Source: a virus
Length of the DNA: 64,000 nucleotides
Virus record (IMG/VR): IMGVR_UViG_3300025424_000009
Strand: one strand, 5' to 3'
Part shown: positions 36,946 to 63,938 of the stretch, in pieces
Numbering within the stretch: position 1 is the first letter of the stretch
Layout of the letters: every line of letters starts with the position of its first letter
Position numbers and translations under genes: made by a program
Notes under the pieces: model-generated
Databases searched by the model: none
What the model saw: the letters and a program-made list of their open reading frames with translations, nothing else
Told to the model about the DNA's origin: nothing

Positions 36946-37043
36946 TTTTTGTTACTTTAAATTCCTGCATAACTTTTTTGCTTTATTAGGTGAATACATC
37001 ATCTTTTAAATACCGACCATTTTTACCTACAACTTAACCTTTT

Positions 37044-37063
37044 CACGAAAGACAAGGGTGTTA
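37044..37063 (-). promoter_or_regulatory. Conserved intergenic motif TAACACnCTTGTCTTTCG, copy 1
   Basis: Recurs at 47151, 56051 (degenerate), 59140, 63860. Confidence 0.6.
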
Positions 37064-40000
37064 CAAGAATATCCAATTAAACTCACTCCTATCTACTCCT
37101 GCTAGGTCAAGGCAGTCGAGGTAGCCCTTCATCACTGCCACGTTGTAAAGATAACTACTATCAGTAGCTATATTCTTATTGACCCTTTCTATACGCTCTC
37201 TGAGATTAAGTAAATATCTCTCTTGATGTCTAGTCATCTCTAGTATCTTTTCTGATAAATCTATCATAACTTATATTTATTTTTTATTAAAGAATTGATT
37301 TTGTGAGTCACTATATGCACCACTAAGCAGCAACTTAGACATAGTGGTATGTGTGTTATTATCTCTTCCATAACTTAATTTTAAAGAGTTCTTAAATTAT
37401 AGGGTATAGCATCCAGACCCCAATCAAATGTGTATCCCACAGACTCTACTGCTATCTGCATAGCTTTTAGTTCCTCGTATCCTATGTCTTCCCCGTAAGC
37501 GGTATCATAGTACTCAAGTATTTGTCTAAGGTTATCAGGTAATAATTCCTGGTGTTCAAATAAATCAACTATTGAAATATCCATAATCTTCTTTTGTTAT
37601 TTCTTTTGAATTAAATGGTGGTGTTTGATATACACTCTGCTTCACATAGATAGTGTACGACTGATCGTTGGAAGGGTTAACCGTCACCTCGTAGTAATTA
37701 AATTCTTGTTTCATATCTTTAATTATTTCTTTCTTCAGTTAAATACTCACCATTATTAAGATAGACAACATGGTTGTTCTTATATTTCGGTAAAGCATAA
37801 CCCAACAACTTGATATTCAATATCTGTGTTATACCCTCTGCTAGGGCTATAGATAGAACATCTTCTTCACTCTCTGCTATGATAAGGGCGAAGGGTTCTG
37901 ATACCTCAAATGAGGCTTTACACTCTACTGCATATATACCTAATAAAGGCATTGATGTTTCCCTGTAGTCAGGGTAAGGGTCAACCTCAAATGAGGTGCC
38001 GGTGAAAGGTCGTGTGTTGTTCATCTTATATTTTTTAAATTTACTACATCAGGTTTATTCCCGAAGTACGTTCCGTAATAACTACCTGCAAAGGTATTGC
38101 ATTTTATTTTAAATTCTTCTAATTCATCATCCCAATCGTCACTTAGATATGATAGTTTAGTTTCTATCCTCCTAGACCAAGTATGGTAAGGGTCACAGTT
38201 ATGTAACACATCTAACATCTCTTCTTCTGATTCACACTCGTTTAATTCCTCTAAATCACATAGTGGAATTTCTTCCCATATCCTCAACTCTGCTTCACGC
38301 CCATCTTTATTATTTCTCCAGTAGTCATTCTCGTATTGGTAGGGAGGAAAGCTCATTACATCAAAATCATCATATTCTTTCTGAGCCTCCTCTAGGGTAG
38401 TGAATAACTCTACAATCTTAGAGTCAGCATAGTTATCTCCTGTGTATACAGAATACTTAGGTTGTTTATTCAAGAAGTCAACCACCTCTTTTTTAATCTC
38501 CATAACTCATAATTTAAAAATGTTTAATTCTATACTTCTAATTTCAAACTTTCGCTTGTCAGGATTGCGTTCTAAGGCCTTGAACTCCTTCGGTGATATA
38601 ACACTAAGGCAGAAGGTATTGAAGTCAAATTTAGCCACCTTAATGCCATTCTTAAAGGCAAAGACATAATCGGTTGTAAACTTACAAGTATAGGTCATAG
38701 TAAAGATAGTTAAATTAATACTGATAGTATCTACCATTTATTTTCTTAACTCCCTCTCCTTCGGACTCCGACTCACTTACCTCTTCAATTCCGTGGTATT
38801 TCAAATCATCACAACTTTCCACCATCTCTGATAATAAGCCAAAGGCTTCAAATATTTCAACATTATTATAACCTGCCTCTTCTAACATATCACAGATGTT
38901 TACAGGCTCCTCTTCGATGATTAGTAATAATTCCTTAGTATTACAATCTTCAATGTACTTGCAATAAGTAGTATTATAATCACCATCTATATCAATAGTA
39001 CCTGTCCCATCATTGTTGTAATCCAATCCAGTATAACCACCATTAGGCTTATAGTAACCATACTCTCCTAAATCAGATACAGTCAAACCTAACCTTTTAA
39101 AGATAGGATAACAATCCATGGTTGCCTGATCAATTTCTTCATCATTATGTACTTCAAAGAAATTATCCAATGCCCGTAAGATATTAGGATAACCTTTATA
39201 CTTGTGTCCATATTCTGTTTCAAACGCATGATAAAGAAAGAAGTCATCTACATAGTCATTAATATCTTTAGTGTAATTGTCAAAAGACAAATGACCTGGA
39301 TTCCAAAATCTACCACCTCTTCCTATATGGAAGCATACTATTGTACCCATAACTTATATTTTTGTTATATTAAAACTTAAAAACTCCTGATTGTTCTTAC
39401 CTTCTCTGATAGTAGAGTAGAAGAATAAGTACCCATTATCTTCCAACTCTTCTCTGAACTCCGTTATCTTAATTGGCATCCTAGATATTGGGTGAAAGAG
39501 AAGGGAGGCCAGAGGACCTTCCTTCACTATCTTGATACATTCTTTCTTAGTTATCTCCTGGATCTTATCACAGATGATATTGATATTGTTGGTGGAGGGT
39601 AGTTTCATTATCTATTTTGTTTATAGTATTCAAAACTCTCCATAGTAGCTTTCACCCTATCTACAAATAGTTGCTGCCACTGATCATCATTCATCATACC
39701 AATACCCTTCTCATTCTGATAGTCAGCTAAATCCGATTGAATCTGATCTAAGAATCTTAAGTACTCATCTTCCCTAGATAGGGAGTGAGGATTATCAAAC
39801 CACTTAATATTCTTTATTAACTCTTTGTCATTCTGACACTCAAATAAATCCTCGAAGCCAGCTTCTGTGATAGTCATATCATTTTCATAAGGACCGTACA
39901 AATCACTTATATCTGATGAATATATAGGGTCAACTACAACCTCTACATATTGTATCTCAGTATCACTATCAACCCTAAGTATACTATTGCCTTTAGCTAC

Positions 40001-43000
40001 CGTAATCAAAACTTTATTCATTTCTTTACTTATTTAAAAATTCAATAATTAATTCTCTTGTAGTCTTGGTACCCACGTCTACTGTGGACCAGAACTTATG
40101 TTTTATTACTGACTCTACTAAGTCTTCAAGCTTATCTAAAGATAATGAATAATCAGTATCAATATTAAAGCCTAGATTAAGATATGTATTAGTATCGTTA
40201 AAGTTAGATGGTATTAGTTCTCCCTTCTCATTTAGGTTATGGACTATACAATCTTCATCTACTACATAGCCTCTCTCCCTTGCTAAGGGTATTGCTTGGT
40301 AATCTGATTCTAGTATATCCAGATCATCTATCTTCTGTACTTCCCAAGTGGGAGTTGACCTCATACACCAAGATACTAACCACCCTTCATCTTCGTAGGT
40401 GTGACCTACATTCATTAACTTACTCATAACTATTATTTTTTATTATAACTCTTCAAATAGATCTTCAAGGTTACTTGTTGCATTCTCTAAATCATTTACA
40501 ATGTCCTCTAGTACATTTAAATCATCATCCCACTCAGAACCCTTATCAGACTCTTGCCAAGCCTCTGACCTGCTGTCATAAGTTTCTTGACGCTTCTCTT
40601 GTAACTCTCTGAAGTATTCAGATGCTTCTGCTATTACTTCAATAAACTTTTCTACTTTTGCACTTCTTTTGATACTCAAAATCTTTAAATTTTAATTGTT
40701 TATTAAATTCAATTCTATTAAATCTTTCATAGAATCATCCACGAAGGTTACATCAAATCTATCGCCATTCAGACATACTGTAACTGGTAATGTTTTATCT
40801 TCTACCTTCATCAACTCGTCTATTAAGTATTGGACTGTTATACCATCTAACCCTGATAGCCTACATAGAACTTGGCAAGGATCCTCGTGATATTCATGAA
40901 CCTGAGCCATTAGTACATCCATGAATACTTGTTCATTGACATTAGGACACTCCTCTTTTGGCTTGTCCCAGAGAATACCTCCCTCTGGTGTTCCGTCATA
41001 TACTAAGTCCTCACAATGATAGTCGTAACCCGTACTGTGTAACATTGTTAAATACTGTATAGCCTCTACTTTAGATTTAATCGAGGCTGGTAAATTAATT
41101 GTAAGCGGCATATTTTATTGTTTTATTATTTGATTAATTCTCCGTATTCATCCACTTCATACTCATCAAGAGACATGGAAGATAGTTCGGCCGTAGCTGT
41201 ACCTGCATCTTTTAGATGAGATAATACATCCCATCCATAACCGTCTAGAAGCCATACTTCAGGACCACCTCTTGTGATGCGAGACCAACCGTCTCCACCG
41301 TCTATGTCGTATAAATCCTTACTATGTATTTCCTCTAGTATGTGGCAATGTAAATCAAAATAATCCATTGCTTGTTCTTCTTCTGTTATTGTCAACAGAA
41401 GATTGCCATCTTCTAAAAGTTCAATGTTCATAACTTTTATTTTTAATTTAACTAAAGAATTGTTCCTGTATACAGATCAGGTATAACATAACTAATATAT
41501 ACACCCTCGGATATCAATGTCTCTGCAATCTCTTCTGCCTTACTGATAGGTGCAAAACACCTCCACTGCTCCTCTTTAACATAGCAAGTGTCATCTTTAA
41601 ACTCCATCTCCCCAAAGATGATAAGGACTTGCTGTTCAGGTAGTAACTCTTCCACACTGACAACTTCAATACAAACATCATTTGTTACTATATCACCCCA
41701 ATCATAACCTTCTGCAATCTCTTCTGCAAGCCTTCTTGCATCAACTTCATTCTCCGAATTTACTGTAAATGAGTTTGACTGATAGCAATTTCTTGAAACG
41801 ATTACTTCATATTTTTTATTCATAATTTATTTATTATCAGGGTTAAGTATTATTTTACCATCCACCTCAATCCAATTAATTTCGGAATCATCTTCCACAT
41901 CCCATTCTGTGTAGTAGGACCAGTCACCTACAAACCAGCTATCTGGAACCGAACATTCATGTTTCCATTCTTCAGGTGTGAAGTGTTTATGAAGGCAGTG
42001 GTCAGAGCAATAGTAATCTTCACCCTGTGCTACCACAAATCCGGCATTCATGCCTGAGCCACACTCACTACATTTACGAGCCCATTTGATTACTTGTGTT
42101 GTCATAACTTAAATTTATTTACCGTTTAACCATTCTTCTACCATGTCAGTGAATTCATCTATACCTATCTCATCAGGCATTTGTATGTCATGTACCTCAC
42201 CTAGATAAGAACTGTTAGCATTATTCCAATACGTTTCATTCAAGTAAACATCTACTCCTGTTAAGTCTTGTTCAGGAATGAAAAAAGGTACGCATCTATA
42301 TTCAATACCTCCGATTGTAATTATAACATCTTGCATGATTATTTAATTTAAAATTTCTTCAATAAGTTCTTCATCTAAGGCTTTTCTAAACAACCCCTCT
42401 GCCGAGAGTATGAAATGATAGTCCTCAACGTAGTACGTTATAGCTTGGTCCACAGGTCCATCTATATCATCCCCCTTTCTCAAATCTAAATAGAGTGATA
42501 CCGGTGCCACTACTATGTTGTAACTCAATTCCTTCACTTTGAATTCACGGAGGGGGTATGATTTCCCTTTGTAATTTATACTATCCATTCTATACTGTTT
42601 TAATGTTATGAAAATTTGTTCCGGACTCCAGCACTGCATCTAGGTCATCCTCCCTAAAGTACTTTCTATTTACATCAGTATTACCCTCGACTAGGTAAGC
42701 CATTAAATCACCTAGACTTTCAAATAAAATGTATTCACCGTCTTTAAGATAAGCCCACACCAGTTCAGAGCCATGTTCACCACAACGATAAACCTCTACT
42801 GATTTATCACTTCTCCATGGATATTCGGTTAAGATACACTCCCACATGTTATATAAATTTTTTAAGTGTTAAATAATCTTGTTCAGTTATCTCTTGGTAA
42901 GACCTAACTCTAACCGCAATCTCTCCTGCGTTAAAGAAGTACCAACTATTGTCCTCCTCAGATGTGTTCCCGTAAAATGTACTAGCATAAGCATCAGCTA

Positions 43001-46000
43001 CCATTTTCATTTCATACCTTTCAGGTACTATATTAATGGATTTGCATTCAAATTCATACTCACCACATCTTATTTGTATTATCAAAAACATATACTTCTC
43101 TTTCATAACTTATTATTTTAATTTTTTATAAAAATGTATATATTTACCTAGCTCACTACTACAATTATAATAGCTATAACTATTCAGTATTTTTTCAAAC
43201 TGATATGATTCATTAATTACCTTCTCTTTATGTAGTTTTAATTTAGCTTCATCGTCATTAATTAAATTCTTCCTCCAATCTTCAATTGAATTGTTTGATT
43301 TGTTAACCTCCTCACTGTAGAATTCAATACAGAAGTTGTTATATCTGACATCTTCCTGAAGTTGTTCCTTATCCAGTTTGATAGGGCATATAACATACCA
43401 AGGTCCAAATGGGTATATATTAGAAGGGCTAAGATAAACTTCTTCACCACTACAGAATAGTTTCCTTGCTGCTGTTTTACTAATTTGTCTAATGGTAATG
43501 TGTTCACCGTACAATGTACCACTTGCTTTGATGTTTTTCAAATCTTTAAATTTTAAAGTAATTATTATACTCATCCTCTGTTATACTTTCTACATAGTCA
43601 ACATAAGCCTCATCACCTTCTTCCGAGAATAACCCTTTAGAGACTGCTAATTCTATTATAGCGTCTTCATCATTACTTAAATCTTCTTTAGACTCTATGC
43701 CTATTGAGTAACCAGAACCCCTTTTAAAGAAACAATGTAATTCGTAATAGTACATAACTTAATTTTTAATATTTAAAAATGAGTAATAAGGGCACTCAAC
43801 CTCTTGTATATAACTATACCATTGATCCATATGATCATTACCCCAAGGTGCATTGAAGATGTTCAATCTGTTGTAGAACAACCATTGCAGAGCTGCACTG
43901 ATAGCCCTCTCATCTCCCTCTGCTATACTATCTAGTATACCTTCTACTGTGTTAGGAATAAAAGATATAAAGCCTGATACAGAAGTGAAGTTATCTTTAA
44001 GATACTTACTAAACTCAGCTCCTTCTTCTTCAGATAGGGTGCATAAATCCTCTAGAAGATTTTCCTCAAATTCGTCTTCCACTACCAATGAGAATATCAA
44101 TCTGTCCGTGTCAAAGTTATACTCTCTTGGAGACCATATCTTATCTACTTCAATATCAAGTATTCCTAGATTCAATTGTTTTATCTCTGGAAGAACATCA
44201 TTTTCTATGAACAGTTTAGCATGTTTAAGTATCCACTCGTTATATTTGTTATGATCAAACTTGAACCAGTAGTCTTCCACATCTTCCAACCCCACCTCTT
44301 TGAAGTATCCTTCTTCATATTTCTGTTGAAGCATCCAATCATCAATGAGGTTGTCGGGACTACATATACCATGGTACATACCTACGTCCACTAATTGAAG
44401 CATGCCGGTGTTTGTTTTAATTGTCCTCATTTTCTTTTATTTTTAAATCTTCTGAATCAATATTTAACTCATCTAAAAAGAACCTAGTAAACTCAGTGAA
44501 TTCATCTACATCAGTCCCCTTTAAGATACCTATCAACCAGTCTCTGAACTTATCATCATAATCAAAACTGGTACATAGGTAATTACCATACACATCACAA
44601 TGACCTTCACAATCATTAAAAATATCTTTATCTGTAATATCTTCTATATCAGTCCTAGCTTCTTGATGTACTGCATAATAGACTGCATAAACAGGATCTA
44701 AATCCCCTACTGGAGCACTTATACTTTCAGCCAATTCAGTAACACACTCTACAGCCCAGTCTACATCTTCACCTACTTCTAAAGCTACTTCAATAGCTCT
44801 CTTGATATCTAGGCTGCCATAAGGGCAGAAGTTAACTCTGTAGTCCTCTACCAACCGTAACATTTTATCTTTCATAACTTATTTATTTTAATATTCAAAA
44901 ATACAATCTCTTAACACTTCTCCACTAGGGAGTGTGACATACTCGTCATCTAAATAACCTAGACCATTAACATCTACAGATTCTATATTATAGACTACAT
45001 TAGTCTTAGTGTTATAAAAACACTCTGTACTAATTTCAATACCACCATCCCATACTGATGTGTATGTTGCTTTAATACTCATAACTTATTTATTTTATTG
45101 TTGATAAAACTTCTTCCACTAAGATATAATCCAACCACAGACATTCTACTATCTGTTCTGCCAGACGATATCTATCATCCCCATAATACTTTTCAATATG
45201 ATGAATCTCAATTAACTCTTGGTCTTCTAGTCCCCTACCTAGAATCATCTCTAATTTGATGATATCGATATACCACTCTGCTGTATTGTCTGTCATATCT
45301 TTTCAATTTTGAATGCATCATATGTTTTACCGCTTGCAACTGTACTGAATTTATATCCCACCTTCTCGAAGATACGAGGATAACATCCCACACCTACCCC
45401 ACCTTCTAGGCAAGGGAGTATACCATACCCACATCCATATCCTAGTAAGTCCCGAAGACTATCTTTTATATTATTCTCACGTGCAATGTAAAATGGTTTA
45501 AGTACCGAGGGTATTTTATTTAAAACATCAGCTACAGCAGTACTTAGCTTGTCATAACCACAGCCAGAGATACTACCTGAACTGACTGCACCACCATAAC
45601 TATAATCACTATACCACTCAGCCTCGGCTCTAGGGTTCATACCCCACATCTTTGATTTGTGCCATTCTACCGAGATGGTACAAGAGTGTAAATCAGAGCC
45701 ATACCAAATACTCTTAACACTATCTAACTCTTTCTTCAACTCTCTATCCTTTATCTTAGTATACCTATCTTTGTAGTAAGCTCTCAGTTCAGGTAAAGAC
45801 AATTTCTTTACATCTTTGCCTCTAGGTAGTAAATGACTATACGCATAGCTACTTCTGATGACATCTTCTTCTTGACTATCAATCTGAATGTTGAATTCTT
45901 CTTTTCTTTTATTGTACTCTAACTCTAGAGCTTGTTGTATGTTTATCATAACTTAAATTTTATTTTTAATAATTTAATTTGTACATTGTTATGTCATCTG

Positions 46001-47100
46001 TTACCATCCACTGGCAGTTAGACAAATTATAATCTAACCCATTCTCAGCCTGAATATAATCTTCCACATCATAACCACCCCATTCATCTTTAAAATCTTC
46101 TGAGATGTTACCTAGATACAATACATCCACCCTTGATGTTTCAAAGTTTAAAACTACTGCATACTTATCTTTCATAACTTTATTTATTATTTTCTTTATC
46201 TTTTATCCAAACCGTTACATAACCTCCCATACCACCTATTGACATAGTGTTATAGTCGAATATCACTATCTTATCTTTTAGCTCATCATACCTTTCTGTC
46301 AACTTCTTAAAGAAGTATTTAGGGTCAGAGTAAGTACTATATCCATGACCTACCTGCACACCATCCATACCATCTAGTATCTCGAAGCCGGCATCCTCTA
46401 ACTCACTCTTACCGAAGAATGAGCCAGGAATAGTCTCAGTTCTTAGTACTTCATCTAGGTCAACACCACTTTCAAACATCTGCTCCTCATAGCACTTAGT
46501 ACAAATCTGTTCACACTCGTTGATGATTCTATATTGCGTGTGCCAACCATTTCTAGGATTCTGTTCACAAATAGTTCTACTACAACACTCACAGTAAAAG
46601 TACCTAAAGTCCTTGCTATATACACTACCCTCCATACAATCAAATGCATGTCTACAACTGAATTTATAGTCATTTGGAATGTTGTCGAAGGGAGTATCAT
46701 ACATATCAGGTTCAATCATATTTTCACTGAAACATATAATCTCAAACTCACTACACTTATTAGTATCCATACTATCAGGTAACATAGGAAGTTCAATCTC
46801 TTTCTCTCTGATAAATAACTCTAGTTGCTTTCCTATTTCCTTAGCTTCCTTTTCTGTATAGGCATCTATCAGCTTCAGAGTAAAAGTGGTTCCTTTATCA
46901 TAATCCCAACTCTTTTTGTTCCACTTTTCTGTAAGTAGCTCTAATGCTTCTTCATCTGTTTCGTATTCCCAATCATCGATTAATTCATTTTCTAGATTCT
47001 CTACGAAAGGTAACAACATAACCTCTTCATCATAGTGGCGAGGTGTTAGCGTAAACTGCAAAACTTTTTTAGACATATACTTTCTGTTTATTTTTATTAA

Positions 47101-47124
47101 AAAAGCCGAACTTAAAGCCGGCTA
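47101..47124 (-). terminator. Intrinsic terminator
   Basis: Minus strand AGCCG-GCTTTAAGTT-CGGCT followed by a T tract. Confidence 0.7.
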
Positions 47125-47150
47125 TATTTTTACAGGTCGAAGCCTTTTTC

Positions 47151-47170
47151 CACGAAAGACAAGAGTGTTA
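47151..47170 (-). promoter_or_regulatory. Conserved intergenic motif, copy 2
   Basis: Plus strand CACGAAAGACAAGAGTGTTA. Confidence 0.6.
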
Positions 47171-47899
47171 TTCAATAGCCCAGTTGCTGTAGTCATCTAC
47201 GTCTAAATACCAATCACTAGGTTCGAGTACCAGGTCTTCAAACTCTTTTACAGCTAACTCCTCGGAGTCAGCTAGTAAGGTTAACTTCGCATACGTCTTG
47301 TGTATAAATGTGTAAGTTGACATGCTATTTGTTTTTGCTGTTTAAAAATTCTTCTAATGTATCGTGGTAATAAAATACTTCATTCCACCTAACACCTTCA
47401 TACTCCTTCTGAAACTCATCTGTAAGTTCCTCAGCTAGTTCATACAGTCCCCCTCTACCATATTCATATTCTCGCTTGTAAGGCAAAGAGTCTTCATGAT
47501 TTAGTTGCTCATTTATCCAGCTAACTACCTCGAAGTGTGTTTCAATCCAGTCGGTATCTTTTGTCATAACTTATTATTATTTAATTTTTACTGAACCATT
47601 TACCTTCCTCGTTCTGATATATGTAACCTGCAATCTCTAATGCTTCCACAGCTAATGAACCTGCCTCATCATAATTAAGAGGATCATCCTGCCAAGCTCT
47701 CTGAGCTAAGTCTTTGTCATTTAGTAGATAAAAGATGTATTTATTCCATTCGGTGCGTACATCTTCATTTTCTACCCACACATCAACCCAGGCCTCTATA
47801 TCTCCATCTTTGATTAGTACGGCATCTTTTTCATATTTTAAAACTTTCATGTTTATTTATTTTATTTACTAAATTCGAAAACTATTTTTAAATCAGTGT

Positions 47900-49220: not shown

Positions 49221-49240
49221 GGAATTTTCCAAATTCTTTT
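49095..49240 (+). ncRNA. omegaRNA (reRNA) overlapping the tnpB 3' end, with a putative guide from the flank
   Basis: Hairpins AGCACTAG-GAGTTT-CTAGTGCT and CTCCAC-TT-GTGGAG; TACAC/GTGTA and GAG/CTC pairings; subterminal AGTAG-AGTAAT-CTACT. Confidence 0.7.
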
Positions 49241-49246
49241 AGACAT
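49211..49246 (-). pseudogene. Gene start truncated by the tnpB element (MSKRIWKIPVT*)
   Basis: Begins with the genome's standard TAAGTTATG junction and runs into the element's right end after 11 codons. Confidence 0.55.
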
Positions 49247-49249
49247 AAC

Positions 49250-49971: not shown

Positions 49972-50254
49972 AACTTATTAATTTAAATGTAAATTTGAAA
50001 TATCCAATGTACTATTAGTACAGCTATCAGTATGAATAAAATTATATACCACATTGTGTAAAATGATTCTGAACTGGAATCTAGTTTATTCTTCTTCCTC
50101 ATCTGAGTAACTTTTTACATCTTCTTGGAATTGTATAAGACTATAATCTTCATTTATTATCTCAAGGAGGAGACTCACTAAATAGGTAGAGTTCATATTA
50201 TCACTGCCTATCCACTGCTCTAAGGTACTTCTTTTAATATACATAATATTTAAT

Positions 50255-50608: not shown

Positions 50609-50609
50609 G

Positions 50610-51710
50610 TTAGGTATGTTTTATTCCAGTAATGTCTTCAAATATTTCGGCATCGAAGTTAGGTAGAGTTAAGAATACATTCTTATTTTCTTCTGAAAGA
50701 TTATTCCACATATTACTCCAAGCTTCTTTTAATGAAATTATTTTCAAAAATCCTTCTGTAGTTTCATATTTAGGATGAGCAACTTTCTCTTCATTTGTCA
50801 TAATACTCATTGGCACCCAAATAGTAGTATCTAAGAATTTACTCATAATACTAACAGCAGGATGTCGTTCCCATTCAACCACTGAGATACTAGTAGGTTT
50901 ATTAAAGAGGTATAGGATAGGTGATTTATCGTTAGAAAAGGCACCTGAATTCCTATAACCTGAATTACTATCACCTGAATTCCTATCACCTGAATTCCAA
51001 TCACCTGAATTCCTATTACCTGAATTCCTATAACCTGAATTACTATCACCTGAATTCCTATCACCTGAATTCCAATCACCTGAATTCCTATTACCTGAAT
51101 TACTATCACCTGAATTCCAATCACCTGAATTCCTATCACCTGAATTCCAATCACCTGAATTCCTATTACCTGAATTACTATCACCTGAATTCCAATCACC
51201 TGAATTACTATCACCTGAATTCCAATCACCTGAATTCCTATTACCTGAATTACTATTACCTGAATTACTATCACCTGAATTCCAATCACCTGAATTACTA
51301 TCACCTGAATTCCAATCACCTGAATTCCTATTACCTGAATTCCTATTACCTGAATTCCTATTACCTGAATTCGAATGTCCAGTATTATTCATACCTTCAT
51401 TAGCTACAAGTAATACTTCTTGCCAATCTAAAATTCTTATTATTCTCAGAATGTTTGTACAAGCTTTACTATCATCACCCTTGAACCGTACATCACCTAA
51501 AGCTTCAACCTCACACACTATATTCTCAGGAGTGAAGTAATAGTAATTAAAGCAATCAGAAGCTTTAAGACAGAAGTGAAAACCTGATGAACATATTTTT
51601 AATTCACCTTTATGTTCAAATGTTTCATTAACTTTGAACTGATAACCATTACATGTAAAGTCAGGATTAAATACTTTGTAACCCTTTACTACTTTTGTTT
51701 CTTCTTTCAT
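50610..51710 (-). CDS. Phage protein with 29 NSGxx pentapeptide repeats
   Basis: N-terminal GYKVF..DFTC.GYQF...CSSGFHFC domain, central (NSG[D/N/Y][W/R/S])n, C-terminal LPNFDAEIF..ITGI. Confidence 0.85.
   Translation of the reverse strand: MKEETKVVKGYKVFNPDFTCNGYQFKVNETFEHKGELKICSSGFHFCLKASDCFNYYYFTPENIVCEVEALGDVRFKGDDSKACTNILRIIRILDWQEVLLVANEGMNNTGHSNSGNRNSGNRNSGNRNSGDWNSGDSNSGDWNSGDSNSGNSNSGNRNSGDWNSGDSNSGDWNSGDSNSGNRNSGDWNSGDRNSGDWNSGDSNSGNRNSGDWNSGDRNSGDSNSGYRNSGNRNSGDWNSGDRNSGDSNSGYRNSGAFSNDKSPILYLFNKPTSISVVEWERHPAVSIMSKFLDTTIWVPMSIMTNEEKVAHPKYETTEGFLKIISLKEAWSNMWNNLSEENKNVFLTLPNFDAEIFEDITGIKHT
50942..51372. repeat. Coding tandem repeat, about 29 x 15 bp
   Basis: Invariant core ACCTGAATT on the + strand with variable 6-nt linkers. 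Confidence 0.95.
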
Positions 51711-54700
51711 TTGTTTATTATATTTTAATTTCCAAAAAATGCATTACTTTTTTCTTCATCTTCAAGGAAGGAAATAGGTACGGCCCATACCCCTCCCTCT
51801 GCAAACATTATCTGAAACTCAACTCCATACTTATCTTTGAGAGTTAAGTCCATCATATCATCTACAGCTTCATGGTGCCACTCGTGGTCTGGACCAGCTT
51901 CTATTGCTTGTATATCATATTCAGACAACTGAGCTTGTATTTGTTCCTTTACGTAATCCATTAGGTATCCATAAGCATACTGCCCCATATAGATACCGTG
52001 ATGGTCATCTACGAGTAGTTCAGGTTCGGTGAATGAATGTTTCATAACTTTACTATTTAATATTTGAGATAGGGTAAGCTGTCAGTATAGAATCTTTATC
52101 TATTTTAGCAATTAAACAAGGAACATCATACTCATCATATTGTGTTTCTTCATTTACTATTACCTTATTACTAGCAGCCTCTAAGGCATTTTCCACATGC
52201 ATCTTAGCAAATTCAATTGCAAACTCTTTTGCCCATTTAGGTAGTACCCCATCTTGAGTATTCAATCTCTCAAATAATTCTTCTGCTGTTATCATCTTAT
52301 TTAATTTTAAGTTTATCTAAAAATTCTATTACATCTTCAAAGGTTTTAGGTTCATTGTAAGTAGCAAACCCTCTCAAAGCAACTACTTTAGGTGTAGCTT
52401 CAAAGTAAGTAGTACATATATCTACACCACATACCTTGTCATCTCTATTAAGTTCTATAGTTAGAGTCCACATAGAAGCATCTGGCCATCCAAAGGTATT
52501 GATACCTCCATCTTGGTAAAGCTTAGAAAAGGACTTCAGACCTTTGTGGTAACCTAGTCTATTAGCTATTTCTGTTAATTGTTTGATCATGACTTATTAT
52601 ATTTATTGTTATGTAGATATCCACCTGTCATACTTAGACCATTATCTAATGTGACTAAAGCTTTTGAATGTACGTTTTTCCAATCAATGGATTTAACTAA
52701 CCTTTTACCTTTTCTACTTATACCTATTATTCTTATTTCAGTAACAGTATTTTTAAAAGGGTACTCTGTCATATTAACTCCTATCTTGTTTTCACGCCAC
52801 CAAACTAAGTCACCTACTTTTAATCTTCTCATAACTTTAAATTTTATTTTGTACCCACCCATACCGTTGTTCCAACTTAGCCTTGGCCACATTGTATCCA
52901 AGTGTACCTATAGTCTGCCAGAGTCTGTTAGCCAGTTCCCTATCTATCACTTCAAAGGAGATGTAGCAGTATCCTCCCCAGTAATGGACGTTTAGATAGG
53001 CAACACCAGGTTCATATTTTATACCCTTGAATCTTACCTTGGCTGTGTATACTGTAAGACTTCCTATTGTAATTTCAGAGAAGCCATATGTTTGAGTTTG
53101 TTTGATATAATTCATCATCTGTACATTTATTTGTGATGTTCACGAAACGTGAACGTTAATATTTTATGAACGTTAATCTATAAAAAATGTTCCACAGCTA
53201 GGGCACTTACTTCCACAAGGAAATTCATTTATATAAACCATATTCCTATGGCGAGAGTAATTCATGTCACCAAATGTACAACTTTTTTCTTCTATGAACA
53301 CCTTATCCAATCTTTCCTCTCTTTCCATATGAGCATTCATACTAGATACAGGTAATTCAGCTACAGGTTCACTGACTTCAAACTCATACACAGTAGTGCT
53401 ACACCATCCATCACACATTCCAGCTATGTCATAAGACCAGGAATATGAAACACACTTGTCTATAAATACATTCTCCTTGTTAAAAGGGAGATTGAAATCC
53501 ATTTTGAAATCTGTAATATCTCCACTACCATTACTGGAATTAATAACACCTATATGAACATTACCTCTAAATCTTATATGAGTAATATTCTTTTCGTCTA
53601 GGTCTAGAAAATCATCTATGTCACCCTCGAAGTAAATATGAAGTGAACCTCCATAAGATGCTTGATAAAGCATATTGTCAATCAGCTTGTCATAGTCACT
53701 ATTTGTTATAGATAATAATTTCTTTATCTTGATACGTTCCAGTCTATAACCTGCTTCAGATGTACCCCATGCTGAATCTACATAATGACCTGTATCATAG
53801 AACATAACAGGATTTGATGTATTAAGTATAAGGTCTTTCATTATAGTACTATCGTCTCTCTCCCAGAGCACATCCTGAATCCTATCTTCATACTCTTCCA
53901 TGATATAGTCAGCATCTTCTATATCCCATTTAGACTCTATGTCAGACTTTAATTCTTTCTTGTACTCATCATTGGCATAGTAGTCATCTATAAACCATCC
54001 ATCTACTATTTCATATAGTAAGTCAACACACCCTTTGTGTATACATTTTTGAACAGTTTTTAAGTTGCTGTCTAGACTATCTCTATAATCTACATAGTGC
54101 AGAGTTACTCTTTTAGGTATCAACTCTTTTACTTCTTCCCAACTAGGCATCTTTAACTCTAGGGTTACTGCCGGTATTTCTTTTGTGATAATTTCCATAA
54201 CCTGTATGTTTATTTTATTAATGATTAAAATCTTTTCTTAACTGACATAATTAAATTTCTTATATCAACACTATGTTTATAAGCCCATACCCTATCTCTC
54301 CATAAAGGTCTCAACCTTTTGTAAGGTATTAAACTCATTTGTTTCCATTCAGATTCTCTAAGAGAAGGTAATAAATTCCATTCAATCAAGTCACAATAGT
54401 GTATCAATTTATCTTCTTTATGTGTAGCCCATACACCATTCAAATGATAATAAATCTTCCTTTTGCCTTTACCAGATACAATCCAATATGTACCATTTCT
54501 AATAGCACATATAGGTATATCTTCAGGCCTTTCACAAGGAGTTAAAAAACTATACTCTATTGGCCATTTACCAGTAGGTTCTAGTTCACCCCAGTCTACC
54601 ATACTTTGTAAGTGCCCTGCATCAGGTGTAAATTTTATATTTGACATAACTAATGTATTAATTAATACTGATCAAATTCTTTCTTAGCCTTCTCATATTC

Positions 54701-55998
54701 TGTGATAGGTGTATCTTGCATGTACAACCAATCCCATAACAAATTAGCTACCCTACCCTTAGTACAAGTAACTTTAGCAAAGTCATACCAATCCATAAAG
54801 ATGTATTCAATACGGTAAGGACTTCTTTCGTCAGGTACAAAGTAGAATCTCCATTCATCAGAAGGACCTCCCCAAGATATCAACCACTGTAAGTATCCTT
54901 TACTCCTGCCATCATCTGGAAGAACATAACTGATATCTAACCCATACTCAAATAGAATACTCATAGCGGTATTAGAACACTTTTCTTTTGTATCAGGTAC
55001 ATCATATCCATGATAATCAAAGAAGCTTTCTTTCTGTTCTTGTGTAGCTTCGTTGTTCATTACTGCAAAAAGCCATGTAAGCTTCTCACATTCTTTTCTA
55101 TACTCACCTTTAATACGTTCCTTGCAAGTTAGCTCTCGCTTAGGAGTAATTGATATGGAAGGTGTAAACACCTCTTGTACTTGTTCTTTCGTAACTGTTT
55201 TTACTTCTATCATAACTTATAATCTTTTAAGTGTTAAACTTTTTGTTATTTTTAAAGACTGTAACCAATACCCATCTGCACTCTCTATCTGATAGTCACA
55301 GAATTTAATGAAATCTGCTTTCTGTTGTTTAGACATACTATCTATTAACTCTTTCACTTGAGAGTTGTTACCATTCACATTAGACTCCACTACATATACA
55401 AAGTAGTCCTCAATAGTCTGAAAGTCTAAACCTTTTATTATTTTTTGTGACACCATGATTATAATTCTATTAGTTCAAATTTGTTAATGTTATCTTCCTT
55501 TAGGTACTTTTCAATAATATCTATAGTACTATCTGTGTTAAGTCCTGTAATGATTGTATATACTACTGGTGTGTTATTTTTTATTTCATATACAGTTATA
55601 CTTTTTTCACCGTTAAGACATTCAAATATATCATCATCTTCTATAAACTTCTCTACTACATAGTATAATTTAATAGTATCACTATACACATTACTGACAT
55701 GTTGTAGTGCTTCATTGTAGACATCTTCATTATCTATATGAAAAACTAAACTACCATCTGAAGAACTTGAAAAACTAAAACAAAAGTCATCAGGACTAGA
55801 AGCTTCATTCCAATCTTTATCAAACCATAAGCAATTAATATTATATAATGCCTCTTCATTAAATGGTGTAAAATCATATAGGTATACCCAACCTATTTTC
55901 TCAGCATCTTTTTTAAACTTTTTGTAAGTTTCAAAGCTACTAGATTTAACTGCAAAACCAATTTCTTTTTCCATTTTAAAACTTTTTAACTGTTAAAC

Positions 55999-56025
55999 AA
56001 AAAAGCCTACCTGAATGGTAAGCTT
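55999..56025 (-). terminator. Intrinsic terminator
   Basis: Minus strand AAGCTTACC-ATTCA-GGTAGGCTT then TTTT. Confidence 0.7.
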
Positions 56026-59000
56026 GTATAAATCTATTAAATCAACTTTCTACTAAAGACAAGAGAGGCTATTACAAATTTGATTTTATTGTTTCGATAG
56101 CCTTATTTATATCTTCCAAGCTGACGTTATCCCAACAACCTATTTTAAAAGTAGCTTGAGTTAATTTTACACTCCAGAGTTTTGTACCTACTTGTAGTAA
56201 TGAAAAGTCTCTTATTTGTTCTAATTCCTCTAAAGATATTTCACCATCTGCCACTAGTAATTTATCATCCATTATTATAGCTTCACGGCTTCGTGAATCT
56301 ATTATCTTTATTTCTTTTTGTTTGTAGATAGGTTCAAACCAAAGGTCTAACACACCAGCTTTTTCTAATAATTCTAAAGTATGTGATTTTGGATAAAATT
56401 GTAGTATTAACTTTTCCATTTTAGTTACATCATCAACTCTAGCTATCTCACAAGCAGCTTTTGAATATTGAGTCTTAACTAATTTATAACCGATAATCTC
56501 TTTTGAAGCTTCTGTATTAAAAGGAAGTAAAGACTCTTCTTTAAACCCTAGTTGAACTATATGGTTATTTTTATCTAAATATCTAACAATATAAAATTCT
56601 TCATACTTACTCGAAATAGTACCCTTGTTTTCTTTAAAAATAAGATCTCCATGAAAAATTAAGCTCTTTGGTATTTTATGAGGTTCACTAAAAAACTTAA
56701 CGTTAAATAAGTTTTTATCCTCAGTATTAAACTTTACCTCATCCCCTATTTTAAATTTGTTTGTCATTGTTATTTTATTTTAAATTATTAATTAATCTTC
56801 AGCATATGAAGTATCAAATCCATTTTCTTTTAGAAGCTCAATAGCCTCATCTGGAAGCCTAAACACACCATCATAGTTATTTACCTTCTTGTTATTATCT
56901 ACCCAGATACCTATCCATACACATTCATTTAAATCTGGAACATCCCATTCAATACCATACTCACCTGGTCTTTCTAAATCATATAAGTCCATTACACATT
57001 TATACTCACCTAGGTGCTCTAATGTAGGTGTAATACTTCTTTCAAGTACTATCTCAGTACTGAATACTTTTGACGCTATTAGTTTCATACTACTTTATTT
57101 TTTATTTCCCCTCAGCTTTGTTTAAGGCGGCATAAACCTGACGCTCTAGATCAATAGGAGAGTTATACTGCTCTTGTAGAGCTTGTAGACATGCCTTCAA
57201 AGCTTTATACATTTCTGGAGCAGCCATGATTAGATTAGAGGTAGTATAATCTTCACTACCTGATTCTTCTAGGTAGGTTAAGGCTACATCTACACCTGTC
57301 TTTTCATCATGTATTAAGTACTGGTTGTAAGGATTACCTATCTTACTCTTAGCCCAAGTGGTGGGTTTATCTTCTTTCACTTCAGTGGGAGTGTAGGGTT
57401 CTAGGTAACGATAATATATACACATATTACTATTATCACCCTCCCTATCGCATTTACAAGCATCTTCTCCGATAAGATTATCAACTATTTTAACTACATC
57501 TCCCTTACAATACCCTGAGTAATTAGGATTATTAACTAACACTTTTGCAAGTGATCCTACTTTAAGTTCTTTCATGATTTACATTATTTAAATGTTTGAT
57601 AATAGTGTTTTAAGTTTATTCATGTCATACCCATCTTGTTTATAACTATCAATTAGATAATCAATATACATCAATGCCTTTTCTTGATACCAATCAATGG
57701 TATCTAACCACTCTAAGAATTTATCTGTTTGAGGGTATCCTCTACATTCAAATATAATTTCACTAGGTAAGTTATCTTTATCCAACAGCCCTTCAGGTAT
57801 ACCTATGATAGGAAATCCATCCTTCATATCATATACATTCCAAGGGTCTTTTACTATAACTCCTTGTGCAATACCATATACATGACCTTTATACTTAAAG
57901 GTAAAGTTATCAAATACTCCCATAATTACACTTGTTTTAAAAATTTATAATGCTTTTTATCTGCAACCTTTTGACTTGATGCAACACAAGTAAAGCCATC
58001 ATCAAATGTATATCGTTGGCATCCTTTAGGAATTACAGTAAATATTTCCCCTGATACATTATCAGCATTGACAGGACTTTTAAAAGAAGTCATTTTACAG
58101 TCAGCTTCAAACATTGCACCCATAGTTAAAAATGCTGCTAATTGATTCATTCTACTCATTTCAATTTATTTAATTTGGTCAACCACTGATGAAATAGGTT
58201 TACATTCTTTGTCACATAGATTTGCAAAGATTAGAAAGAGCTTTGTTTGGTAGATTTTATTACTACTCTTTACAAGAGATTGACTCCAAGCTCTGTAGGC
58301 ACTAATTAACTCATTGGAGAGTTGTGTTGAATAAGTCATTTTTATTTATTTTAAATTGTTAAAAAGAAGCTGCTAAATTAATATATTTTTGTACTTCGTT
58401 GGTAGATAGGTAACCTTTTACATCACTACATGGTACAGTAAAAGTTTCAGAATCAAAATCATACCATTGACCTTTTTCATTCCAAATTGCAATTTCAGCA
58501 TCTGGAGATGTTTATATTTCAGAATCATATCTTTTATTATTATTCTTACAATAACAACCACCACCGAACATCACTGAAATAGTAATACCATTTTCAAATG
58601 TTAATTGAAACCCTCTGTTGTTTACTACTCTAAACATAATTTTTATTTTTTTTAATTAATAAATAAGTGATATTTTATGTATATCTCTTAGCCACTTCTG
58701 TAAGATGTGTTGGGTAGATGCAAGTACATAGTTATTGCTGTCATTATTTTCATAAGGTAAACCTGAACCTTCTTCTAATGTGTCATAGCCATACTGACAA
58801 GGTATATTAAAACCTTTTTCTTTAGCTAGTTTAGCTGTTTCAAAATCAACAATTTTTAATTCCATAACTAATTAATTTTTATTTTTAATTAAAAATTCTT
58901 TTATCTCTTCAATCACATAAAATGCAAGATTAAGAATAGCTAAGAGTAACCAACCTAGTGCCCATTTATCATTATGGATGTAGTAATACCAAGAAAGAGA

Positions 59001-59103
59001 ACCATACCCAATAAACGATAATAAATAAAGTATATTCATAAAATTTAATTTTAAAATTAATTGGTAAAAATTACCATTTAAAATAACAACATACTAAATA
59101 ACA

Positions 59104-59130
59104 AACTCAGTCAATAATATCAACTGAGTT
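59104..59130 (-). terminator. Hairpin, probable terminator
   Basis: AACTCAGT/ACTGAGTT perfect 8-bp stem with a T-rich tail on the - strand. Confidence 0.55.
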
Positions 59131-60455
59131 ATAAAACTCAACGAAACACAAGAGTGTTAAAAGTCAAGTGTGACAAGAACTAAATAATAACCTCACTTAA
59201 AGCCTCAAGCCTATCTACAATAGCTTTACTCTTAAAAGTAGGTTCAAGATAAAACTCATCTTCAACCTTTATAGCTCTGATGTACCCTTTATGTTGTAGG
59301 TCAATAATGGTATTCTCATTAAGTATTATACCTAGCTTCCTAAAAGGTAATATATCACCTACAGTACTAATAGTAAAAATGATGCGTAGTTCAAGTGTAT
59401 TCATAACTAATCAATTTAAACATGTTAAACAAACTTCATCTATACTCATGTGCGACTCTTGAGAGATAGTATCAAATAAGATAAGTAAAGGGTCTTTGAT
59501 AATAAAAACACAACCTAAAATTTCCATTTTATTTTTTTTTATTTTTTAAACTAATTCACTGGTAAAAATTACCAATACAAATAATAACAATATACTATCC
59601 CAGTAGATAAAAAAAATATCTATATTAAGTTTTATTAAATGTCAATATAAAAATCTTTATAAAAATACCTAAACCCATCACTATGCCAACCATTACCTTC
59701 TCATATTTTTACTCTCTCATACCTAAGCTTTAAACCTAATTCTTCTGTAACATCAAATAAACTCGGTAAGTTCTGTCATATTAATTGAACGTTTGTTTAA
59801 TTTTAAATAAGGTAGGGTGTATGATGACTGTATTAGAGATAACAATCATCGTAATATTACGATTAATAAATAGATCTAGGGCGTATAACAATATTCAAAC
59901 AACTGTTTTAAACACTTGTTTAAATAATAGGGGCTGGAAAAGGGAGTATCTTTTAATCACCCTCCTCTGTATTAAGGCTATCTATAAATTTCGAAACATT
60001 ACTATTCAATTCTATAAAGTCTTTCTTCGTTTTTGAATACCATCTTTGATAATACATAAGCCCCTCAACAAGTGCATCCCTTTCGGTTTTAGCTCTCATT
60101 GAAATATTCATACGTTCATTATAATCATACAACCAATAAAGACCACTGAATGTATCCTTGGTTAACTGAAAGGCATCACTCTTAAAAAATTAGTTCATGC
60201 TTTACCATAAGTTGAAATGTTTATTATTATAACCTAATATAAGAATTTAATTTAGAGAGCCCTTTAATTATCTTAGAAGGGTAGTTCGAACAAACGTTTT
60301 AAACAACTGTTTAATATTTAATATCTAAAAAGTTTTTTTATTTATCAGGAAAATTACCTAAAAAGAGGGGAGGTAGAGGAGGGTATCTGCTTTTTAGACA
60401 AATTTCCCCCACTTTTACCCACATTTCCCCACTTTATATAGTATTTTATTCTTTT

Positions 60456-60569
60456 TTACTCTAAAAACCAGGCAGTTTCACCACTTCCCCCTCCCATATT
60501 GTTATCGTTATCATCCTTAGTACCTTCTATCAGTATAAAAACAAATAGAATTGCTATTATTAGACTCAT
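60456..60569 (-). CDS. 37-aa membrane micropeptide, not in the ORF track
   Basis: MSLIIAILFVFILIEGTKDDNDNNMGGGSGETAWFLE; follows a duplicated leader. Confidence 0.45.
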   Translation of the reverse strand: MSLIIAILFVFILIEGTKDDNDNNMGGGSGETAWFLE

Positions 60570-60665
60570 TTTATTTAAATTTAATTACAGACTTATTAAG
60601 CCCCTGTTAACAATAGATTAATACAAACACCTTACTCACCCTATTACAGGTCAACCTTGAGCCTC

Positions 60666-60854
60666 TCAGTAGCCTTTTTCCCTAATTGAACGTACATTTT
60701 GCATCCAATTATTGAAGTCTACATGAGATATTTCTCTTTCAGAGACCTTAATTCTCTTAAATTTTAACCTATTTCTCTTAGGTTTTACACCAAAAAGACG
60801 TAATAAAACAGTATTTTTAGCCCTGTTTAAGGCTATTTTAAATCGTTTGTTCAT
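60666..60854 (-). CDS. Small basic hypothetical protein
   Basis: 62-aa Lys/Arg-rich ORF with an A-rich start context. Confidence 0.5.
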   Translation of the reverse strand: MNKRFKIALNRAKNTVLLRLFGVKPKRNRLKFKRIKVSEREISHVDFNNWMQNVRSIREKGY

Positions 60855-61175
60855 TTTGTTATATTTATTAATAATGTACCTTGCATATTAAGGGAGGTAG
60901 TATAAACTGAGTGCTCTTTGAGGTCCCTTGTGGTTAAAAATCCTCGCACCGACCCCACTCTAAGAATTTACCCTTAAGCTGTAACAAATGGTTTTAATAA
61001 CATACACTTACTTTTAACTCTCATTGGGGGATAAAGGGGGAGTCTATTTTAATTAGAAGGTCATCTTACTAAAGAGTGCATTCCTTGGTAAGGTGTTAAT
61101 CATATCAACATATTATAACTTGTAGTCTAAGTAGGTAATGCACTGCCGAACAGACTACATTTTATTTTATATCCT

Positions 61176-62447
61176 ATGTCACCATTAGACACCACTGTAG
61201 TAAACTACTACAAGAAATTCAGTAAACCGACTGTATTAGGTACAGTAACCTTAAGAGAATGGCTGAATGCTATTAACAAATGCCCTTACACCAACAAGAT
61301 ACTAGACGCTAGGTCAGGTAAGAAAGACTATGAATTAACTAAAGCTTCTCTGCCTGTAGTAACTTATAACTTCTTATACAGAGAATATAAGAAAGATAAA
61401 AACATAGAGTCACCTACAGGGCTACTATACTTTGATATTGATACACCTGAATTTAATATAGAGTCACTGGATAAGAGTAAGATATTTGTATTACACCATT
61501 CCTTTGGAGGTAGAGGTTATGTACTTCTTGTCAGGGTCGAGGGATTAACAGTTAGTAACTTTAAATCAGTATATAAAAATATTGCTATTGATTTAGGTAT
61601 TGACCACCTGTTTGATACTAATGCTGCAAAACATTCTCAATACAATACTCTTAGTCATGATACTAAGATTTTTATTAATGAAGATTGTATAATTTACGAG
61701 GTTGAAAAAGACCCCACGTCTGTCATATTATCTACTCAAAACAGCCTTGAAAAAGACCCCACGTCTGTCATATTATCCAGCGATAAAGAAAAAACCCCAC
61801 GTCGGTTGATACATGAAGAAGATACAAGATATATCACAGAGATGGGGTCAAAAATACCTTATGCACAATTAAGGTTCACTAACCTAACAGATTATGAATT
61901 TACTTGTGACTACATAGTTAACTGGTCTGGCTTTACTTTTATTCATTGTTACATACCTTTTAAAAACAAATGCTCCAATAAGTATAAAACTTTATTAAGC
62001 TATTGTACTAACCTTGTTTGGTTAAACCCTTCCATATCCTATAGCAGGACTTATAAAATAATGTCAAGAGTAAATGACATTTATTATGACATACCCTCAA
62101 AAGAAGTAAATGTAAAAAGAGTAGTTGATACAGTATTTAAGCAAACACAAGAGGGTACTTTGAAACCTATACAAGACAAACCTAGATATATAATATTTGA
62201 CCACACTAATAAAAGTAAATTATCCACCAGTGATAAACTAGAGATATGTAGAGATGAATTAATAAAGAAAAATATACTAGAGAGTAAACAAAAACTAGCA
62301 AAGCTAATAGATGAGTGGAACCTAGACCTTGAAGGGAAAATAACCATAAAAGGATTAGCAGCTAAGAAAGTACTAAGCAAAAATACAATTGATAAATACT
62401 ACTCTGTTTTTAGAGAGGCAGTTAAGATTAAGAATTCAAAGCTATAA
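61176..62447 (+). CDS. VirE N-terminal/BT4734-like (primase-polymerase-related) replication protein
   Basis: TL.EW...I, K.SLP.VT, TGLLYFDID, HSFGGRGY..LV motifs typical of this family. Confidence 0.7.
   Translation: MSPLDTTVVNYYKKFSKPTVLGTVTLREWLNAINKCPYTNKILDARSGKKDYELTKASLPVVTYNFLYREYKKDKNIESPTGLLYFDIDTPEFNIESLDKSKIFVLHHSFGGRGYVLLVRVEGLTVSNFKSVYKNIAIDLGIDHLFDTNAAKHSQYNTLSHDTKIFINEDCIIYEVEKDPTSVILSTQNSLEKDPTSVILSSDKEKTPRRLIHEEDTRYITEMGSKIPYAQLRFTNLTDYEFTCDYIVNWSGFTFIHCYIPFKNKCSNKYKTLLSYCTNLVWLNPSISYSRTYKIMSRVNDIYYDIPSKEVNVKRVVDTVFKQTQEGTLKPIQDKPRYIIFDHTNKSKLSTSDKLEICRDELIKKNILESKQKLAKLIDEWNLDLEGKITIKGLAAKKVLSKNTIDKYYSVFREAVKIKNSKL
61702..61803 (+). repeat. Direct repeats inside the replication gene: 2 x 31 bp plus a partial third copy
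   Basis: TTGAAAAAGACCCCACGTCTGTCATATTATC at 61702 and 61747; GAAAAAACCCCACGTC at 61788. Confidence 0.9.
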
Positions 62448-62500
62448 CCCTACCTACCCTACAACTCATCCATTATCTTCTTCAGCACATTTATTCTTAC

Positions 62501-63855
62501 TTATAGTAATTCTATTACTTCAGTCTTACTGTTAGCTAAAGTAGGTATTTGAGCTATGAATTGCTCATCACGGTGACCTTCCTTTTGAATAGTATAAGGT
62601 TTTAATACTTTAAAATACTCTCTCTCTACTTGTAAATAATCTATATTAAAGCGTTCTTTCAAGCATTTACAGATACCAAAATCCATATTTGCCTCGCTTA
62701 GATGTTCCTGTATTTTCCTTAAATCATATAGACCCTTTACCACCTCAGTATGTTCAACGTAATAAGCTAGTACTCTTTCAAATATCTCTTTCATAGTTAA
62801 TTATTTTTACGTTGAACATAAGGGATACATCCCCCTTGCTTCCTTGAATAAGCTAGTCGAGCATTGGAAATAGGATCTACACAAGAAGTGTGGATACTAA
62901 ACTTTTTACGACCACTTCGAGTAAGGTTAATAGGTTTGGGTGCGTCACCTTCTAAAGCTCTGTAAATGCAAGGCTTAAACGTTTCAGTTACGATTTCCTC
63001 TTTTACCTTCTGTAGTGGAATATGTCTAGGTACTAATTCTATATTCAGTCTCTTTGCAGCCCTTTGCATATACTTAGGTAAATCACTAGGATAGATAGTT
63101 TCTACCCTATCTACTTTCTTCTTAGTGGGATCATATTGTATATCCCCTTTACTACTTTTAGTACTACTCATTGACTTGTTTTGTAAGGCGTAGTCTAGCC
63201 TTGTCATTTGTTGATTCATAAAACTTTATTTAAAAGTTATTCAAAAATTGATTTAATAAGAAACCATATCATAGCAAAAGTAACACATAGGTTCTTGTAC
63301 TACCTTAAATTCAGGGGTTATTCTATTCACCCATTCCATACTATCTTCCCTGTTTACATTACCACAGGATGAACACTTACACTTAGGATGTCTATTATCT
63401 TTAAATCTTTCTATTATAGGTAATTCTATCTTACCTAGTATTACAGGTGTTTCCATCTTATTTAATTTTAGCCTATTTAAAGCTGTTAAAAAATAAATTA
63501 ATATTATCCCCTTATTACCTACCTATTACCTCAACCTTGAGGCTCTCAGGTATGATTTTAATACCTTTGTAGATAAAATATAAAAGGTTAGCTTTGCTAT
63601 ACTCCTCATTGAGAGGGTATAACTTTTTTGTAGGCTTAAGCATAAAGCCTTTTTTGCTGACCTTTATTTTCATCGTAGGTAAGCTTTACGAGCATCACCC
63701 CAACTAAACTTAGGGCAAGTACTTCTACTTGAAGCACAACTACATAACAGCCCTACTAGGGCAATTAATACAATGATTTTTTTCATAAACTTTATAATTA
63801 TTTTGGGGATATACCCCATTAACAAAAAACACCTAGAAATTGTATCTAAGTGCAC
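62501..63855 (-). other. Small hypothetical CDSs (62501-62794, 62797-63219, 63253-63456 Zn-ribbon, and about 63670-63786 lipoprotein-like)
   Basis: The last ORF probably starts at MKKIIVLIALVGLLCSC (lipobox-like). Confidence 0.6.
63824..63852 (-). terminator. Intrinsic terminator
   Basis: Minus strand CACTTAGA-TACAATT-TCTAGGTG then TTTTTT. Confidence 0.7.
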
Positions 63856-63938
63856 ACACGCCGAAAGACAAGCGTGTTAAAAACAAAGAGGCCAGGATAG
63901 ACATCCAGCCTCGTCTATGTCCAAAACAAAAAAACTAA

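Follow-up and report, generated by a model that had tools for sequence, protein, structure and literature searches.

The DNA considered here is a 64-kb window, that is, the whole stretch of 64,000 nucleotides analysed from the IMG/VR virus record IMGVR_UViG_3300025424_000009, and the element under study is an 18-nt box that recurs in the spacers of its small-gene array. The window has a G+C content of about 33% and falls into two blocks of opposite orientation. The plus-strand block (1-31 kb) includes genes for a split family A DNA polymerase, for GroEL, for glycosyltransferases and for an exonuclease, and the plus strand carries canonical Bacteroidota promoters of the form TTG-N19/20-TAnnTTTG. 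The minus-strand array (about 31-64 kb, a span of 33 kb) is made up of about 70 small, tightly packed genes. As the GroEL encoded in the window shares 43-44% identity with the GroEL proteins of Flavobacterium phage immuto and of the Bacteroides DAC phages, and given these promoters, we conclude that the source is a large uncultured phage with a Bacteroidota host; judging by its family A polymerase, it is not a classical T4 relative. Comparison of 22 distinct array proteins with Pfam and/or PHROGs gave a single match to a family of known function (HNH endonuclease), and five others of the 22 matched PHROG families of unknown function only. Such a result is typical of a variable accessory region, which is probably early. 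The start context AAGTTATG is common to the array genes and has no such role among the plus-strand genes (19 minus-strand genes vs one plus-strand gene).

The box, TAACACnCTTGTCTTTCG, is present in four copies with at most one mismatch, every one of them on the minus strand. They were located by a search of both strands of the window with the pattern TAACACNCTTGTCTTTCG, allowing one mismatch or none, and lie at 37063-37046, 47170-47153, 59159-59142 and 63879-63862 (sites 37, 47, 59 and 63). Shuffled sequences give a chance expectation of 0.11 copies, and none of 100 shuffles reached four. A weight-matrix scan of the 64 kb scored these copies at 28-32 bits and added a degenerate one at 56070-56053 (-) with 22.4 bits (site 56). 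The best match outside the boxes scored 12.9 bits, and nothing else in the 64 kb is box-like; since the best match per shuffle ranged from 10.1 to 20.0 bits in 20 shuffles, the degenerate copy stands only just above the range. The five same-strand copies, one of them degenerate, that a preliminary description of this sequence had listed are thereby recovered. None lies outside the array, and all run in the direction of its genes. The copies read TAACACCCTTGTCTTTCG at site 37 and TAACACTCTTGTCTTTCG at site 47, where the TAA is the stop codon of the genes 37061-37267 and 47168-47323, respectively; AGCCTCTCTTGTCTTTAG at site 56, where only the 3' core CTCTTGTCTTTnG is retained and a stop codon directly precedes the box; TAACACTCTTGTGTTTCG, with one mismatch, at site 59, where the stop codon lies 20 nt before the box; and TAACACGCTTGTCTTTCG at site 63. 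Thus, the box often abuts an upstream stop codon, as had been described. Directly upstream of box 59 (59160-59177, minus strand), partial tandem repeats of the box core are found (CTTGTC ACA CTTGACTTT).

Each of the five longest non-coding spacers that separate co-oriented array genes begins with one of the boxes; the other such spacers measure at most 78 nt, apart from two gaps of about 113 nt that hold mini-ORFs. At four of the five sites a hairpin with a T-run follows 8-29 nt past the box. These predicted terminators were placed by the terminator scan at 47123-47104, 56025-56003, 59130-59104 and 63853-63829 on the minus strand and each folds stably, in agreement with the preliminary description, which had put four copies just upstream of terminator-like hairpins. 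They represent four of the five convincing intergenic minus-strand terminators of the array. The fifth (63880-63912, minus strand; GAGGCTGG...CCTGGCCTC followed by TTTGTTTT) is a separate terminator-like hairpin that ends an upstream tRNA-like unit and abuts box 63, and besides it the terminator scans of the array gave no further convincing intergenic minus-strand terminator. At site 37, terminator scans and folding revealed no hairpin after the box and no terminator in the remaining 6 kb of the array. The box is the only conserved element at the terminator-bearing junctions. The flanking genes of the five sites are unrelated, and so are the hairpin sequences, which argues that the box is kept by selection and is not the product of recent duplication. 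Duplication of flanking genes was also rejected directly, the sole paralogue pair of the window lying elsewhere (34471-34713 and 52053-52295, both minus strand; 48% identity over 58 aa). A homologue is encoded on IMG/VR contig IMGVR_UViG_3300020048_000104.

The next ATG follows the first base of the box at a nearly constant distance, with 93, 94, 96 and 93 nt at sites 37, 47, 56 and 63. The value for site 63 takes the ATG at 63784-63786 (minus strand; context AAAGTTTATG) as the likely true start of the first gene after the box, as the listed ORF starts at 63855 and 63819 fall inside the hairpin and its T-run. At site 59, where the leader has an extra small hairpin, the distance is 120 nt. Moreover, a TA-anchored A/T box lies 16-22 nt past the box at all five sites, and GTAAAAAT is found at the identical offset from the box at sites 37 and 47 despite indels in the intervening sequence. 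At sites 59 and 63 the A/T box is enclosed in the apical part of the hairpin: at site 63 (hairpin and T-run 63822-63853) the loop contains TACAATTT at 63844-63837, and at site 59 (59094-59130, a 12-bp hairpin with a weak T-run) the apical part contains TATTATTG at 59119-59112. At sites 47 and 56 the hairpin starts directly after the A/T box. Here the whole segments span 47098-47132, with TAAAAATA at 47132-47125 and the hairpin at 47123-47104, and 55996-56036, with TAGATTTA at 56036-56029 and the hairpin at 56025-56003. The A/T box of site 37, TAAAAATG (37018-37025), has no hairpin after it; all these features are on the minus strand. An A-rich leader, placed after the hairpin and T-run, completes each cassette.

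No host promoter could be recognized in these spacers. The Bacteroidota sigma-A consensus has a -33 TTTG and a -7 TAnnTTTG element, and neither the pattern TTG-N17-21-TAnnTTT(G/A) nor a TAnnTTTG box occurs in any of the five box spacers, so that the earlier remark that the box does not fit the host TAnnTTTG element holds. The best candidate A/T boxes match three to five of the six specified positions of TAnnTTTG, and their summed match of 21 compares with 13.6 +/- 3.8 in shuffles (p of about 0.03, post hoc). The 3' end of the box (TTTCG) occupies the place expected of the host -33 element (TTTG). The coding strand of the array is nearly free of host-type promoters, and only one match, at 59689, lies wholly within non-coding sequence. 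This match belongs to a 1.2-kb stretch (59405-60665, minus strand) that has no convincing ORF and contains G-rich and C-rich runs (gtggggaaatgtgggtaaaagtggggg and ccctcctctacctcccctc).

Other promoter types were considered and discarded. If the TTG of the box served as the -33 element, the A/T box would follow it at a spacing of 23-29 nt, which is too long, and a geometry like that of MotA boxes, with a -10 element 11-13 nt downstream, is missing at site 47. In sigma-54 promoters, the GG at -24 and the GC at -12 are invariant and their spacing is fixed; on direct reading against TGGCAC-N5-TTGC, the box has AA for GG and GT for GC, and its blocks stand 3 nt closer. The spacing of promoters of the ECF type was rejected on direct reading of the box as well. 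The suggestion that the flanks close a stem around the box was borne out at site 63 only, with 7 bp; site 59 folds differently (stem AACAC/GUGUU), sites 37, 47 and 56 share no fold, and folding of the five copies gave no common RNA structure. This lack of a common fold fits recognition of a linear sequence, as of a DNA-level signal, and a linear RNA site is also compatible with it.

Some further features of the spacers and of the genes next to them are worth recording. The gene after site 37 (36565-36970, minus strand) is the HNH endonuclease (Pfam HNH_5), whose open frame starts only at a TTG, 36945. From the well-placed ATG at 36970 (context AAAAGTTATG), an ORF of 17 codons runs in the frame that is one base upstream of that of the HNH gene, and the two frames overlap across A-runs (AATAAAAAGAAAACC); this arrangement could reflect a frameshift, polymerase slippage or a decaying gene. 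A small hairpin, TGGTAATTTTTACCA, occurs twice, at 59063-59077 (-) and at about 59560-59575 (-), both copies lying in A/T-rich leaders a short way ahead of an ATG. The intergenic-looking spacers 37264-37371 (-) and 49983-50054 (-) contain mini-ORFs for hydrophobic peptides, of 35 and 23 codons, respectively, and the first of these ORFs has a AAGTTATG start. Elsewhere in the array, the gene 50610-51710 (-) contains about 30 tandem 15-nt repeats (GGAATTCAGGTGAT...) and matches phrog_14105; its weak tblastn matches (about 35% identity) are Rheinheimera phage genes annotated 'pentapeptide'. Relatives of TnpB in a search of genome contigs were Bacillota and cyanobacterial only and gave no clue to the host.

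Because the array is cut by four good terminators and is nearly free of host-type promoters on its coding strand, each unit downstream of a terminator needs a device for either restarting transcription or reading through. We consider the chance about even that every spacer forms a compact cassette at a terminator/promoter junction, with the box as the upstream element of a promoter class that departs from the host consensus. Such a cassette would join two transcription units of the array and be the counterpart of the promoter-early stem-loop (PeSL) cassette of other phages. Transcripts arriving from upstream would contain the whole hairpin and end at its T-run, while the box would recruit RNA polymerase to a start about 7 nt past the A/T box. 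All hairpins begin at most 29 nt past the box and hence upstream of the predicted start. This start would lie beyond the hairpin at sites 59 and 63, and at site 47 it would fall within the hairpin's 5' arm. With a start within or past the hairpin, the RNA made from the cassette itself would lack a complete terminator and could run into the next unit. A terminator T-run abutting box 63 is the natural order for a promoter and speaks for the promoter reading. This comes closest to one of the three roles offered in the preliminary description, a phage-specific promoter making RNAs of 40-70 nt: the promoter part agrees with the composite geometry of a terminator/promoter linker, and the small-RNA part is not supported. 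Since the box is far more conserved than the host element, and the A/T boxes are poor matches to TAnnTTTG, the promoters may form a second class that needs a phage factor, either an activator or a sigma-like protein, with a role comparable to that of T4 middle promoters. Being repeated linkers, the cassettes may in addition serve as sites of gene shuffling.

The closest precedent is the PeSL, a cassette described in the T4-type phages RB49/phi1, PST/T4 and nt-1/KVP40 (PMC2839356; PMC4122927). It has a length of about 100 bp and consists of a stop codon, a conserved block, a stem-loop inside or after the promoter region and a start codon (PMC2839356; PMC4122927). The stem-loop most often lies between -35 and -10 or over the -10 element, and is also found just downstream of -10 (PMC2839356). 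The spacers described here are likewise repeated linkers of about 100 bp, in five copies, co-oriented with the genes of an array of small orphan genes in a large phage. They have a conserved block at the position of a promoter and a sequence-variable stem-loop or terminator within or just after the promoter region, the latter at four of the five sites as predicted terminators. However, the scan of the five spacers gave no recognizable host-type early promoter, and in contrast to that of the PeSL the conserved block is not of the host consensus, spans just about -50 to -33 and is followed by a weak downstream element. Moreover, there are only five copies in 33 kb, whereas classical PeSL arrays are dense, the phage has a Bacteroidota host and a family A polymerase, and both promoter activity and a shuffling role are putative here.

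The replacement of the host upstream element by a conserved upstream box, together with a modest downstream element, is also a feature of T4 middle promoters, which have a MotA box and a -10 element, and of their combinations with stem-loops (PmSL), and these sites are similarly interspersed in regions of early genes (PMC4122927). In phage nt-1, middle promoters are combined with stem-loops (PMC4122927). On the other hand, the sequence of our box is unrelated to the TGCTT Mot box, its spacing follows the Bacteroidota -33/-7 geometry, and no MotA or AsiA homologue was found here, no genome-wide search for them having been made. A second comparison is offered by Flavobacterium phage vB_FspM_immuto (MW353176.1), the nearest cultured relative, which belongs to the same broad phage group (GroEL 44% identical). 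Between about 22 and 74 kb it carries 15 near-identical cassettes, TTG-N20-TAT(A/T)TTTAGGTAT(CAATAATTAAAACA), with the ATG 32-38 nt past the start of their box. In four of the 15, a hairpin (-12.5 to -17.3 kcal/mol) with a T-run lies within the 20-nt spacer, the -33 TTG being in its 5' arm. Both phages thus have a cassette of fixed length before small genes with (A/G)GTTATG starts, and in immuto, too, a terminator is placed within some of the promoters. Unlike ours, the cassettes of immuto come close to perfect promoters of the host type (TTG-N20-TATATTTAGG), their conserved part being the downstream part.

Several observations weigh against a terminator/promoter junction. There is no recognizable host promoter, and the A/T boxes are weak, the post hoc p being obtained in AT-rich sequence. 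The predicted start at site 56 leaves a 6-bp stem and a U-run in the new transcript, and at site 47 the outcome hinges on a few nucleotides. Five copies per 33 kb are sparse beside the classical PeSL arrays. No candidate for a transcription factor or sigma factor was identified, and no box-carrying relative was found in the databases searched. A near-identity DNA search of phage records gave no match to the window, and protein-based locus searches of IMG/VR with two array proteins and the polymerase gave no relatives. Scans of IMG/VR and of JGI metagenomes with the exact box pattern gave just single, chance-like matches on unrelated contigs, mostly of much higher G+C content. An IMG/VR contig encoding four proteins with weak similarity to those of the window has a single box-like match, which does not exceed the count of the reversed-pattern control, and no repeated cassette. 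Flavobacterium phage immuto and Bacteroides phage DAC16 have no box above the control count. A literature search for boxA in Bacteroides or for phage promoters with TAnnTTTG yielded nothing usable. A further proposal, which we regard as possible though doubtful, is that a transcription factor encoded by the phage recognizes the box, such as a sigma-appropriation or MotA-like activator, a new sigma factor or an antiterminator acting at each terminator, and that the box defines a timed 'middle' expression class.

Among the other explanations, antitermination agrees with the order of box and terminator. The box would be a signal in the RNA, or in the non-template DNA strand, that lets the polymerase read through the terminator that follows, being of the nut/boxA type, of the type of ops sites read by NusG paralogues, or bound by a phage antiterminator, and it would time the successive units. 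As in lambda nut and rrn boxA, a short linear sequence follows a stop codon and precedes a terminator; the box lies upstream of a terminator at four of the five sites, always on the transcribed strand, in an array that has few promoters of its own. Its TGTCTTT also loosely resembles the core of the E. coli boxA, which we take to be GCTCTTT. However, site 37 is free of terminators through the remaining 6 kb of the array, and the terminator directly upstream of box 63 would be left unprotected. A single site per operon suffices in processive antitermination, for example by lambda N/nut or rrn boxA, whereas here each of the four terminators has a box of its own ahead of it, at variable spacing, and local systems of the RAT type overlap the terminator, in contrast to the 8-29 nt found here. 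The five copies, without a common fold, have neither the conserved boxB-type hairpin that stands next to boxA in nut sites nor any other, and the fixed distance to the ATG and the A/T box at fixed offset play no part in such a model. The nut/boxA-like function suggested by the preliminary description therefore fits less well than a promoter does, and we consider antitermination rather unlikely. The box could instead be a site of RNA processing or stability in the 3' UTR (untranslated region) of the upstream gene, where a phage or host RNase or an RNA-binding protein would act next to the terminator hairpin, the RNase III sites of the T7 early transcript being a precedent. A pyrimidine-rich box that is unstructured in most copies, directly follows stop codons, occurs in the sense strand only and neighbours a 3' hairpin would suit this role. 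Nevertheless, site 63 follows a terminator and not a gene, so that little RNA would carry this box, no partner complementary in trans was found on either strand of the window with up to three mismatches, and the transcription of the downstream units is left unexplained; we give this explanation a small probability.

An asymmetric 18-bp sequence, in few copies and on one strand, might also be the DNA site of a strand-specific enzyme, such as a nicking endonuclease, a homing endonuclease or a recombinase mobilizing gene cassettes, and any link to regulation would then be secondary. The HNH endonuclease gene directly after site 37 and the partial tandem repeats at site 59, which suggest slippage or recombination, point in this direction. 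Yet one would not expect sites of nicking or cleavage to be coupled so tightly to stop codons, to terminators and to the ATG distance, and an endonuclease gene is near only one of the five sites, which leaves a slim chance for this explanation. Finally, box and hairpin together might be a family of small RNAs of 40-70 nt with a constant 5' handle, as the preliminary description also proposed, and a constant sequence followed by a variable middle and a terminator has the layout of such a family. We regard this as highly improbable, as no promoter stands upstream of the handle, which is abutted by coding sequence at sites 37 and 47 and by a T-run at site 63; moreover, a terminator is missing at site 37, the handle does not fold in a conserved way, and the variable parts are scarcely more than the hairpins themselves. 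The idea that TnpB guides or a trans-acting antisense RNA target the box was rejected, since no second copy was found on either strand of the window.

To our knowledge, little has been mapped of how Bacteroidota phages time the expression of their genes, and we know of no description of a timed 'middle' expression class in these phages. The element is best filed, by analogy, as a promoter/terminator linker of the PeSL kind in a Bacteroidota phage, with a conserved block that does not follow the host consensus; its unusual part is the nature of the box and not the general design of the linker. If this is true, the PeSL design would extend to Bacteroidota phages with a promoter that is not of the host type. 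A second class of promoter or control, fused to terminators in a linker of fixed length, would then give a concrete handle on the timing of expression, and the 18-nt box could be mutated, cloned into reporter constructs or employed to capture the factor that recognizes it. Otherwise, the box would be a lineage-specific regulatory motif of local interest.

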